Notes: generated by a model from the sequence alone, not told the origin. Shown: positions 7,341 through 12,132, counted from the first letter of the stretch. The stretch is 23,282 nucleotides of DNA from Methanobacterium sp. (GCA_003166335.1 PMWA01000032.1:1-23282), one strand, 5' to 3'. Numbers and translations are program-made.

Positions 7341-8221
7341 ACCGAGAAAAAGCCGGGAATTCGGCTAATAAAAATGCCATTATTGGAAATATAATTCTCA
7401 CAATTCTTAATTTTGTTATAGGATCCTTAGCAGGATCCACAGCACTTGTCGCAGAAGCTGCCAACAACTTAGGAGATTGCCTCTCCACAGCCATATCATG
7501 GTTTGCCTTTAGGATTGGAAACCGAAAACCTGATGAAGAACATCCATATGGTTACGGAAGAATTGAACCGTTGATGAGTATTTTCATTGCATTATTACTG
7601 TTTTATGTAAGTTATGGAATTTTAACGGATGCTTATTCAAAGTTTATTACAGTTGGATCCTTGACAGCACCGAATTGGATAAGTGCAGTTATGGCGTTAA
7701 TTGCAGCGGTTATATGTTTTTATATGTCCAAAAACTTAACCAAAACAGGAATTAAAATTAACAGTCAACTGCTCATAGCTCAAGGTAATGAAAAAATGAC
7801 GGATGTATATGTAAGCATAACTATCTTTTGTGGTATTGTAGGAGCACACCTCGGATATCCTATTTTGGATCCAATACTCGCAGTAGTGATCGCAGCATTA
7901 GTTATTAAAGTTGGATTTGAAATGTTCCTGGAGAATATTGAGAACCTCCTGGGACATGTGCCTAAAGGTTTAACGGATAAAATTATGAAAGTTGCCTTAA
8001 GCGTTAATGAAGTTCGAGATGTAAGGAATCTTAAAATAAATACAGTTGGTCCAACCAATAGCTGTGAATTAGATCTCATATTAAATGATGAATCTAGCTT
8101 TGATGATGTATACGAAATCAGTAATAAAGTTGAAAGTGAGATAGTACGTTCTATTAATTTTATTAGCAGTGCATCTATTCATGTTGTGCCTGACACTAAG
8201 ATTATAACTGATGATTTTTAG
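7337..8221 (+). CDS. Cation diffusion facilitator (FieF/YiiP-like) metal efflux transporter
   Basis: GSTALVAEAANNLGD, KPDEEHPYGYGRIE, LDPILAVVIA, about six TM segments, and a C-terminal ZT_dimer-like domain ending in IHVVP; AGGAGA RBS. Confidence 0.92.
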   Translation: MNREKAGNSANKNAIIGNIILTILNFVIGSLAGSTALVAEAANNLGDCLSTAISWFAFRIGNRKPDEEHPYGYGRIEPLMSIFIALLLFYVSYGILTDAYSKFITVGSLTAPNWISAVMALIAAVICFYMSKNLTKTGIKINSQLLIAQGNEKMTDVYVSITIFCGIVGAHLGYPILDPILAVVIAALVIKVGFEMFLENIENLLGHVPKGLTDKIMKVALSVNEVRDVRNLKINTVGPTNSCELDLILNDESSFDDVYEISNKVESEIVRSINFISSASIHVVPDTKIITDDF

Positions 8222-8837
8222 CATTTTTATAAGTTAAATGAGCTTCTTCTTCATCCTCAAATAAGCCTAAATGTTTTTGTTTCCCATTTAGAAAAATATA
8301 TGCTCTCCATTTTTGAAGATTTTTATGCCATGAAACACCTTTATATTTACTAGTTTTTGGGAGTGATAATGTTGAAATTTCATTACCTTTTTTAATTTCA
8401 TTACAAGCCCAATCATAAGCTTTGGCTGCTTCTTTCTCGTTATCAAATGTTCCTAAATACTTCTTTTTTCTACTTATTTTTATTTGAGCAACCCATCTTC
8501 CAGTCCTATCGTCTAAAATAACACCAGGATATCTTGATCTTATAGGAATATGCAAATTTTGACTGTTTTCTCTAGGAGTAACTACCTTTAAATTTGATCT
8601 ACAATTATTTAATCCATTACCATCAATATGATCAATTTGCATATCTTTAGGTGGATCCATTATTAAACGATGCATCCAAATAAATGGATATTCATCTTTA
8701 ATAGGAGATACTCTACGGACATAATAACTTTTTCTTCTAGTTTTAATTGCATGCCATTTCCACTGGTTTAACCATTCATAATACTCATCATCAACTAAAG
8801 CAAATTGATTCTGTGTTAATTCAATCTTTTTAACCAT
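8202..8837 (-). CDS. HNH homing endonuclease with two AP2 DNA-binding domains
   Basis: ALVDDE, MHRLIM, IDHIDGNGLNNCRSNL...N, then two AP2 repeats (SRYPGV..W.AQI..KYLGTF..EAAKAY and SKYKGV.W..W.A.I..KHLGLF). Confidence 0.92.
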   Translation of the reverse strand: MVKKIELTQNQFALVDDEYYEWLNQWKWHAIKTRRKSYYVRRVSPIKDEYPFIWMHRLIMDPPKDMQIDHIDGNGLNNCRSNLKVVTPRENSQNLHIPIRSRYPGVILDDRTGRWVAQIKISRKKKYLGTFDNEKEAAKAYDWACNEIKKGNEISTLSLPKTSKYKGVSWHKNLQKWRAYIFLNGKQKHLGLFEDEEEAHLTYKNAKNHQL

Positions 8838-8925
8838 GTTTATAGCCCCTAGTTCCGCCCTTTAGCTCTAATTTATCCCATTGTTAATGGGCGAGTGGGG
8901 ACGGAGCTAAAGAACATCCCCACAC
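8838..8925 (-). ncRNA. Structured 5' leader of the HNH-AP2 gene (C4-antisense-like or pseudoknot)
   Basis: GC-rich island with stems 8895-8901/8917-8923 and 8877-8882/8886-8891. The loop 8904-8912 is complementary to 8860-8868, and 8889-8893 to 8856-8860. A TTTATATA box on the minus strand at ~8948-8955 lies ~25 nt upstream. Confidence 0.6.
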
Positions 8926-8981
8926 TATTAATTATTTGTTTATAGTTATATAAATATTTTATTCATTAGAGATGATTAATA

Positions 8982-9116
8982 ATGAAATCAAGAATTTATT
9001 TAATGGAATGCCCAGATTGCGGCCATGAATTAAGAGATAATCATATCTCAACACGCTGCCATAAATGCAAAACTGGTAAATATGATATAATATTCGAATA
9101 TCCAGGAGAAATTTAA
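8982..9116 (+). CDS. CPxCG-type one-domain zinc-finger microprotein (44 aa)
   Basis: Manual translation MKSRIYLMECPDCGHELRDNHISTRCHKCKTGKYDIIFEYPGEI, with two CxxC motifs. Confidence 0.75.
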   Translation: MKSRIYLMECPDCGHELRDNHISTRCHKCKTGKYDIIFEYPGEI

Positions 9117-9117
9117 A

Positions 9118-9189
9118 ATGCTCCATAGATTAAAAAAATGTCCACATAACCCCTGTAACTGCCAGCAACGAGGAAAAATTATAAAATAA
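9118..9189 (+). CDS. 23-aa Cys-rich basic micro-ORF, possibly truncated
   Basis: MLHRLKKCPHNPCNCQQRGKIIK; AGGAGA RBS inside the upstream gene; 1-nt gap after its stop. Confidence 0.4.
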   Translation: MLHRLKKCPHNPCNCQQRGKIIK

Positions 9190-11261: not shown

Positions 11262-11777
11262 ATGGCTGTGTTTGATATAGAGAAATTTAAAACTATTATT
11301 CATTTTGTAGTAGATAACTGTGAAGACAAACCAAATTTTGGGAAAACAGTTTTATTCAAATTATTATATTTTTCTGATTTTAATTTCTATGAATTATATG
11401 AAGAAAAATTGACTGGTGCAGACTATGAAAGACGTCCATTTGGTCCTGCACCCCTAAAACCAGAATTTGATAAATCCATAGAAGAACTCGAAGAAGAAAA
11501 CGCAGTAATTCAAAAGAGAGTAGATTTTGATGATGAAGTTTATCAATTCCGTTATTTTTCATTAAAAAAACCAGATATACATAATTTATCTGAGGAAGAG
11601 GTAGAAGTCATAACTAATGTTATAAATAAATGTTCTGATATGTCTGCTACTAGGATAAGCGATTATTCTCATGAAGATCTTCCCTGGCAAGCTACAGAGA
11701 CAGGTAACATTATAGATTATGAACTAGTTTTTTATAGAACACCGGAGTTTTCAGTGCGTGAGTATGAGGAAGATTAA
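11262..11777 (+). CDS. Panacea-domain antitoxin (DUF4065/SocA/GepA-like)
   Basis: KTVLFKLLYFSD, Y.RRPFGPAP and SATRISDYSHEDLPW motifs. Confidence 0.88.
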   Translation: MAVFDIEKFKTIIHFVVDNCEDKPNFGKTVLFKLLYFSDFNFYELYEEKLTGADYERRPFGPAPLKPEFDKSIEELEEENAVIQKRVDFDDEVYQFRYFSLKKPDIHNLSEEEVEVITNVINKCSDMSATRISDYSHEDLPWQATETGNIIDYELVFYRTPEFSVREYEED

Positions 11778-12132
11778 TTTTGATCGTGTAGAGGAATTTG
11801 ATAGAGACTGTATTAAATTATCAAAAAGGAAATGCAAAACCTTACTCGACGATTTAGAAACTATTAAGAAAGCTTTAAGGGTTAAAATTCCAGAACACCA
11901 AAGTACAAAACGTATTAATGATTTAGGTGAATTAGTCAAAATTCCAATCTACAAAGTAAGACGTTTTCGTTGTAGAGCCATAAAAAAAGGATCTTATAGT
12001 GGATTTCGCCTCATATATGCATATATCGAAGATTCTTCTACTATAACATTTATACAATTTTATCATAAAGATAATGAGAAAATTGAGAATAGAAAAAGAA
12101 TTTATAAGTATTTCAAAGAAAAAGAAATTTAA
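11764..12132 (+). CDS. RelE/ParE-superfamily toxin (HigB-like)
   Basis: Basic 122-aa protein with F.RD..KL, IYKVR...KGSYSGFRLIY and YHK; overlaps the 3' end of the antitoxin; alternative GTG start at 11758. Confidence 0.75.
   Translation: MRKINFDRVEEFDRDCIKLSKRKCKTLLDDLETIKKALRVKIPEHQSTKRINDLGELVKIPIYKVRRFRCRAIKKGSYSGFRLIYAYIEDSSTITFIQFYHKDNEKIENRKRIYKYFKEKEI

Follow-up and report, generated by a model that had tools for sequence, protein, structure and literature searches.

An uncatalogued family of leader RNAs before homing-endonuclease genes of Methanobacteriaceae and viral contigs, with a loop that may mask the ribosome site

Here, we report that positions 8923-8838 on the minus strand of a 23,282-nt stretch of Methanobacterium sp. 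DNA (GCA_003166335.1 PMWA01000032.1:1-23282, hereafter the window) probably form the 5' leader of an HNH-AP2 homing-endonuclease gene and one of the seven members of an uncatalogued, covariation-supported family of leader RNAs. Together with their promoter, these leaders stand before HNH-AP2, HNH, and GIY-YIG homing-endonuclease genes of Methanobacteriaceae and viral contigs, and their hairpin loop likely masks the ribosome site except when it is engaged by a similar site farther upstream. As judged from sequence comparison, the RNA family is new, of a known functional kind, and real, and its mechanism is a proposal.

The leader of the window measures 86 nt (table 1) and opens with hairpin S1, whose stem holds seven Watson-Crick pairs, or nine pairs if a U.G and a G-C pair are included. 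Loop element A matches, without a mismatch, the reverse complement of A' (9 perfect bp, 8912-8904 with 8868-8860), which lies 35 nt downstream of the loop and would thus form a pseudoknot with it. Element B is likewise the reverse complement of B', and since the elements succeed one another in the order A, B, A', B', the two helices cross. The second hairpin, H2, overlaps B, so that H2 and B/B' exclude each other. Every element that a previous sequence-only reading of this DNA had listed was recovered on the minus strand at its coordinates, base for base. The GGGCG of that reading is also present, but it corresponds to 8860-8856 and shares G8860 with A', the proper partner of B being GGCGG at 8859-8855.

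Table 1. Elements of the leader, its promoter, and the nuclease gene, in window coordinates.
Feature	Position	Strand	Remark
TATA block TTTATATA	8947..8954	-	Predicted promoter of the conserved module, from the sequence and its alignment with the TATA-like blocks of all seven homologs
Hairpin S1, 5' arm GUGGGGAUG	8915..8923	-	Pairs with 8903-8895
S1 loop, 11 nt	8904..8914	-	Contains element A
Element A CUUUAGCUC	8912-8904	-	Inside the S1 loop; pairs with A'
Loop stretch UAGCUCC	8909-8903	-	Complementary to the ribosome site
Hairpin S1, 3' arm CGUCCCCAC	8895..8903	-	Stem; an RNA-library contig end (8897) falls inside
Element B, UCGCC plus C8889	8889..8894	-	Pairs with B'; overlaps the 5' arm of H2
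Hairpin H2, CCCAUU AAC AAUGGG	8877..8891	-	Arms 8891-8886 and 8882-8877; mutually exclusive with B/B'
A' GAGCUAAAG	8860..8868	-	Pairs with A; resembles the ribosome site, upstream of which it lies; proposed decoy
B' GGCGG	8855..8859	-	Immediately 3' of A'; partner of B
Shine-Dalgarno site AGGGG	8850-8846	-	Part of 8843..8850
GGGGCUA (Shine-Dalgarno and next bases)	8849-8843	-	Complementary to loop 8909-8903 (7 bp, one G.U)
AUG of nuclease ORF	8837-8835	-	Start codon
HNH-AP2 homing-endonuclease gene	8202..8837	-	211 aa; Pfam AP2 (E 7.5e-16) and HNH_3 (E 9.5e-8)

Tests on this single sequence were mixed, and the decisive support is comparative, coming from six further homologous leaders in which compensatory changes preserve every pairing. 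As a nested fold, the leader is not exceptional (RNAfold -28.1 kcal/mol, z = -1.29, 24/200 shuffles folding equally well). Pairs of perfect helices that cross and total 16 bp are rare, at 3/3000 dinucleotide shuffles and 39/1376 own-genome leaders, and scoring crossing helices by hydrogen bonds gives 1/3000 and 3/1376, both statistics having been picked after the finding had been seen and the comparison set being made of 1376 upstream stretches of 90 nt from crudely called ORFs. A perfect 9-bp match is common by length alone in these own-genome leaders (162/1376), because the genome is AT-rich. With a GC content of 47.8%, the leader ranks highest of the 1376 (median 20%), the whole genome having 32.4% GC.

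The seven distinct leaders comprise, besides that of the window, two in G102, a genome from another genus of Methanobacteriaceae, and four on viral contigs. The single window leader served to make a covariance model of S1 and H2 only (R1), which was run over 150 other genomes of the family, where it matched G102 twice at full leader length (E 9e-10 and 2e-7). One of these copies (C4, on contig 4, unrelated to the C4 RNA of P1) precedes a GIY-YIG+NUMOD3 gene, the other (C12) precedes a 229-aa HNH (PF01844) gene, and both have the same loop and the same A'. A DNA pattern of the conserved parts led to V1, located before another GIY-YIG gene on a 29.5-kb viral contig. Through relatives of the GIY-YIG protein of V1, we then reached V2 and V3, which occur together on the same viral records and are each found in identical form on several viral contigs, and protein alignment led to V4, on a viral contig, whose ORF was classed by its GIY-YIG start motif and tblastn only. 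In all seven cases, a homing-endonuclease ORF lies directly behind the leader, its type being HNH_3+AP2, HNH, or GIY-YIG+NUMOD3. The similarity among the homologs covers a purine-rich stretch and the TATA block and runs through the start codon, the flanking DNA upstream and the ORFs downstream being unrelated. Against the family model (R3), the window scores 85.2 bits (E 1e-15), with the TATA block, S1, all helices, and the nuclease ORF present.

The HNH-AP2 protein itself is sporadic, with relatives at E<=1e-20 in 7 of 301 family genomes and a best identity of 53%. A protein search for its relatives yielded 18 genome-contig, 79 viral, and 78 metagenome loci, only one of which is close, namely the metagenome contig L117, with an identical protein (100%) and an identical leader. 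When 181 loci around HNH-AP2 relatives were searched with blastn, nhmmer, R1, and R3, the leader was found in the identical L117 only, with no other match at E<0.4. Since, L117 apart, the leader was found at none of these loci, it is not a property of the HNH-AP2 family. The earlier proposal that it controls an HNH-AP2 nuclease thus fits the window, where such a gene follows, but is too narrow for the leader as a whole, which also precedes GIY-YIG and plain HNH genes. Other HNH-AP2 genes have GC-rich inverted repeats of their own in their leaders, non-homologous to the present one: a 10-bp repeat lies upstream of an HNH-AP2 paralog in the same genome (L004, C16), and a 9-bp helix ends beside the ribosome site in G005, of the same genus (L019).

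In its own genome, the leader is single-copy by BLAST, and model R3 adds none there. BLAST against 18 other genomes of the genus gave no match spanning 8923-8838. In the genus of G102, 1 of 32 genomes, G102 itself, carries the leader, and a class sample of 151 genomes, identical to the phylum sample, has it in G000 and G102 only. GenBank phages returned chance AT-rich matches only (blastn), the 29-nt S1 sequence had 0 matches as an exact pattern on viral contigs, and a GIY-YIG gene with 47% identity (L284) comes without such a leader. The pattern GTGGGGA-N8-22-TCCCCAC, searched over 314 family genomes, was found in 16 other genomes versus 4 for the reversed control, and all matches in those 16 genomes lie in coding or unrelated intergenic settings. 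A looser leader pattern gave 18 matches in the 314 genomes versus 11 for its control, the real ones being confined to G000 and G102 (two copies); one was discarded because it is coding at its locus (G018), and the remaining ones were judged from the matched sequence alone. Also set aside were matches inside a conserved coding gene (G330 and G333), a low-complexity chance match in a giant-virus record (L247), and weak R1 matches that resemble coding sequence without the helices (G035, G069, G019, and others).

When the seven leaders are aligned by MAFFT without regard to structure (A9), S1, A/A', and B/B' together have 97.4% of their 152 cells paired versus 88.3% in shuffles, none of 500 of which reached this value, and 37-56% with slid partners. 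Eight pairs change on both sides, in seven sequences from related elements that contribute, for each loop helix, two variable columns and one shared deletion. For S1 taken separately, 98.3% of the cells are paired and five pairs change on both sides; its U.G pair is retained in 6/7 leaders, which points to RNA of the sense strand rather than DNA. All 59 cells of A/A' are paired, with four A-U, two U-A, and one G-C at one position and six A-U and one G-C at the next, and in V3 and V4 the loss of one U in A comes together with the loss of one A in A'. The value for B/B' is 91.4%, all three failures belonging to the misaligned row of V2, which has a 7-bp B/B' of its own; between homologs, this helix changes from U.G to A-U and, in V2, from G-C to U-A. 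An equivalent of H2 is found in all seven leaders, always overlapping B, as 4-6 perfect bp in five of them (4 in V4) and as G.U-containing 5-bp stems recognized by eye in G102 copy C4 and V2. On a model-fitted alignment (A5), which leans toward the model, H2 is 91.7% paired with six covarying pairs. The unpaired bases GUUC, before A, and AAAGGG are invariant.

These comparisons bear out the non-nested pairing of A with A' and of B with B' that the sequence-only reading had put forward, both being retained by covariation in 7/7 homologs. They also agree with its TATA box upstream of the first stem: the block begins 30-33 nt before the first base of S1 in all seven leaders (about 31 nt in the window). 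The usual archaeal spacing between TATA box and start would place the beginning of transcription at the foot of S1, which would accordingly lie at or beside the predicted transcript start. As for the covariation that the same reading had proposed to seek among leaders of HNH-AP2 genes, it does appear among the homologous leaders, but the 181 loci of HNH-AP2 relatives furnished no relative other than L117.

Beyond these pairings, the S1 loop is complementary, in 7/7 leaders, to the Shine-Dalgarno core and the two to five bases that follow it, a pairing potential rather than a measure of occupancy. The match amounts to 7 bp with one G.U in the window, 6 bp in C12 and 10 bp in C4 of G102, 9 bp in V1, 7 bp in V2, and 8 bp in both V3 and V4. 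This loop-to-Shine-Dalgarno complementarity is a new observation, overlooked in the earlier reading. For this helix, the MAFFT alignment has 48 of its 49 cells paired, versus 89.2% in shuffles (1/500 reaching it) and 33-53% with slid partners. Moreover, the two variable bases after the GGAG/GGGG core are those of A' in every leader (CU, UA, UA, UU, UC, UU, UU). As A' and the Shine-Dalgarno flank share these variable bases and both pair with the loop, the loop, A', and the flank covary three ways. The predicted duplex energies follow the same matching: cognate loop:A' duplexes average -12.1 kcal/mol versus -7.4 for non-cognate ones, and cognate loop:ribosome-site duplexes -10.3 versus -7.1. In V2 and V3, which share one viral record, the loops differ and each matches the ribosome site of its own leader, which favors a cis-acting element over an RNA shared in trans.

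On this basis, given that the loop matches both A' and the Shine-Dalgarno site and covaries with them, the likely mechanism is an anti-Shine-Dalgarno loop with two alternative seats, the ribosome site and a decoy; with the loop also matching the Shine-Dalgarno site, A'/B' becomes a probable decoy instead of a regulatory target. When seated on the ribosome site, the loop would prevent initiation and keep translation off, and when seated on the decoy A' and locked there by B/B', it would leave the ribosome site free. By withholding B, H2 would favor the former state. Either an equilibrium or a signal shifting H2 versus B/B' could then set a low level of a nuclease that is potentially harmful to the genome carrying it. 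Restraint of the nuclease had been suggested before as the purpose of the structure, and it is a reasonable one; the structure itself is a real RNA feature of the minus-strand leader.

The energetics qualify this scheme. The duplex energies favor the decoy A' over the ribosome site in 5/6 leaders, by 0.6-3.5 kcal/mol, and B/B' adds -7.6 to -9.8 kcal/mol. With the decoy duplex the stronger one in 5/6 leaders, free RNA might therefore mostly leave the ribosome site open, and an additional factor may be required for the "off" state, unless regulation runs the other way. By our own reasoning, a 9-bp helix that takes up nine of the 11 loop bases would leave a 2-nt linker and be sterically tight. 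The similarity of A' to the ribosome site could also, in principle, come from duplication and not from two selected pairings.

An unlikely, though not negligible, alternative is that the leader is structured for another job, in which the double pseudoknot formed by S1, A/A', and B/B' would bind a protein or a small ligand or protect the 5' end of the mRNA, the match to the ribosome site being a side effect of its likeness to A'. The greater stability of the decoy state in 5/6 leaders would fit this view, as would the invariance of several unpaired bases (the GUUC and AAAGGG mentioned above) and the location of S1 at the predicted 5' end in 7/7 leaders. However, it gives no account of why the dinucleotide after the Shine-Dalgarno core tracks the loop in 7/7 leaders with four different dinucleotides. 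The encoded nucleases are, besides, unrelated, which makes autoregulation by the encoded protein unlikely.

Transcription of the locus can be approached through 13 RNA-library runs from 10 studies that contain parts of the window, in the form of assembled contigs only. Contigs of runs X1 (7969-9119) and X2 (8508-9025) bridge both the leader and the promoter, so that DNA or read-through RNA is a possible source. One contig each of X3 (8412-8897, depth 21.9) and X4 (8747-8897, 151 nt), from different studies, terminates at 8897 with no loose end, a point 2-3 nt into the 3' arm of S1. This shared end weakly hints at a discrete end, not at a small RNA, and might result from processing or from reverse transcriptase halting at the fold; as a promoter, 8897 is poorly placed. 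With contigs ending inside S1, much of the RNA or cDNA may lack the loop. Positions 8898-8910 are without contig cover in X3, X4, X5, and X8, a gap in cover that is not evidence by itself. One contig of X5 begins at 8974, shortly ahead of the zinc-ribbon ORF, which is divergent from the nuclease gene.

The sequence-only reading had interpreted the leader as C4-like, and the corresponding view, that its 5' part is cut out as a small antisense RNA that pairs with A'/B', possibly in trans, and represses the nuclease, now seems improbable to us. C4 is a stable small RNA with two elements, a' and b', that undergoes RNase P processing and whose target covers the ribosome-binding site of the regulated gene, the CI RNA of P4 being an analogue. 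In P1/P7, the C4 antisense RNA of the immI operon blocks icd/ant expression (PMC8198154). The likeness is genuine in that short single-stranded elements pair, within one transcript, with two adjacent downstream sites in non-nested order, an arrangement that is real and conserved here, and in that both systems belong to a mobile-element setting. Processing might explain why contigs of two studies end discretely at 8897, and the loop and A' shared by the two copies of G102 would make cross-talk possible. However, cleavage at that position would break up S1, the piece released being some 26 nt long, and the RNA-library contigs, a form of data unsuited to revealing a small RNA, showed none. Furthermore, A' and B' end at 8855 and do not cover the ribosome site (8850-8846), which is a separate, third match of the loop.

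No Rfam match to C4 was obtained at any threshold tried. At the gathering level, the window gave no match to any family; at E<=10, region 8750-9150 gave six weak matches, none overlapping 8838-8960 and none to C4. Five homolog loci at E<=1, and the leaders of V1 and G102 copy C4 at E<=10, gave no C4 and no family assignment, the few matches in the leader stretch of the latter being chance-level, far below threshold, and all to unrelated families. The Rfam int-alpA motif was not among the matches for the window or the homologs tested. Membership in a C4-like family is thus contradicted in the window and the homologs tested. Nor does the release of an antisense RNA of about 50 nt, also part of that reading, find support, the self-matched leader copies V2 and V3 in one virus favoring cis action. 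In contrast to C4, then, the present leaders appear to act in cis and have an archaeal promoter and host, RNA release being only proposed for them.

The anti-Shine-Dalgarno reading has a closer parallel elsewhere. In T-even phages, RNA structures that mask the ribosome site control the homing endonucleases I-TevI, I-TevII, I-TevIII, segB, and Aeh1 mobE (PMC2988022, section 12); there, the site lies hidden in a simple stem, and the masking is relieved by a late promoter internal to the structure, whose transcripts lack the masking arm (PMC2988022). These masking hairpins are the closest published analogue, with the same presumed purpose and setting and another architecture. In both cases, an RNA structure able to pair with the Shine-Dalgarno site lies directly upstream of a mobile nuclease gene, recurs before unrelated nuclease families within one virus group, and presumably serves to hold translation back. 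Unlike the phage structures of section 12, the leaders described here have their sole recognizable TATA block upstream of the whole structure in 7/7 cases, with no internal promoter; the masking partner would be a hairpin loop, in a pseudoknot, with a competing look-alike site upstream; and the hosts are archaeal, no sequence relation to the phage hairpins having been found.

With regard to the surroundings of the leader, window positions 7818-9127 align to L117:1211-2520. Within them, 8022-9051, which takes in the nuclease gene with its leader and the greater part of the zinc-ribbon ORF, differs by one base, whereas 7818-8021, in a cation-efflux gene, differs at 17 bases. To the right of about 9127, the DNA of the window and that of L117 are unrelated, and to the right of 9120 yet another context is seen in RNA contigs. 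The pattern suggests recent movement or conversion of the cassette, as expected of a homing endonuclease. The zinc-ribbon ORF (44 aa, 8982-9116, plus strand) is divergent from the nuclease gene and has two CxxC pairs, its zinc-ribbon Pfam matches being weak and below cut-offs. Further along the window, a 171-aa ORF (11262-11777, plus strand) carries a SocA/Panacea antitoxin domain (E 1.4e-20), and an ORF that overlaps its end (11758-12132, plus strand) may be the partner toxin. In G102, the leader-bearing HNH gene (L222, G102:C12:16500-20600) stands beside a HicA/HicB-like pair and a tyrosine recombinase-like ORF, both recognized by eye from translations. A second HNH-AP2 gene (L015) lies 6 kb from it, and the locus looks like an integrated element. 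The GIY-YIG copy of G102 adjoins a lysin-like gene. The C-terminal 50 residues of the GIY-YIG+NUMOD3 proteins of L225, L227, L233, and L223 resemble, by eye, an AP2-type DNA-binding segment (W-R/A-x-x-I ... K-x-LG-x-F), with no Pfam match to AP2 at E<=0.001.

A DNA-level element, that is, an operator for a regulator such as the divergent zinc-ribbon protein or an inverted-repeat site of recombination or homing, would suit a stretch flanked by divergent genes and closely following a TATA region common to both, in a cassette that looks recently moved, but it is hardly credible because the conserved U.G pair of S1 would turn into an A.C mismatch in DNA or in RNA of the opposite strand and because helix sequences change with pairing retained, an RNA signature; nor is the zinc-ribbon gene a conserved neighbor of the leader in G102 or the viral contigs (E 0.54 against the G102 neighbor). 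An upstream small ORF (AUG 8917 to UAA 8873) was ruled out by a 1-nt indel inside it between copies C12 and C4 of G102, and a tRNA or att remnant was likewise rejected, no tRNA being found and the GC-rich part having no other copy in the genome.

To our knowledge, few cis-regulatory leader RNAs are known in archaea, and in the literature searched (titles and abstract openings) no such leader was found for archaea or their viruses, methanogen viruses included. Going one step further, we tentatively entertain, as a possibility more than an expectation, that the module is a portable promoter-plus-riboregulator cassette of methanogen viruses. Its bistable pseudoknot leader would flip its loop from the ribosome site to a decoy of its own and back, and the toggle of H2 versus B/B' would read a viral or host signal. 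It would then be the first family of cis-acting translational RNA switches described in mobile elements of archaea, and would extend to archaea a general rule whereby unrelated homing endonucleases are governed by loop-to-ribosome-site leaders.

Unrelated homing endonucleases of archaeal viruses thus appear to have one common expression-control module, as in T-even phages, which suggests a general need to restrain such enzymes. The compact, covariation-supported fold offers a testable design, with one loop and two competing targets, and may represent a natural small part for translational control in methanogens, where genetic tools are scarce. In Methanobacteriaceae genomes, finally, the leader marks mobile nuclease genes.
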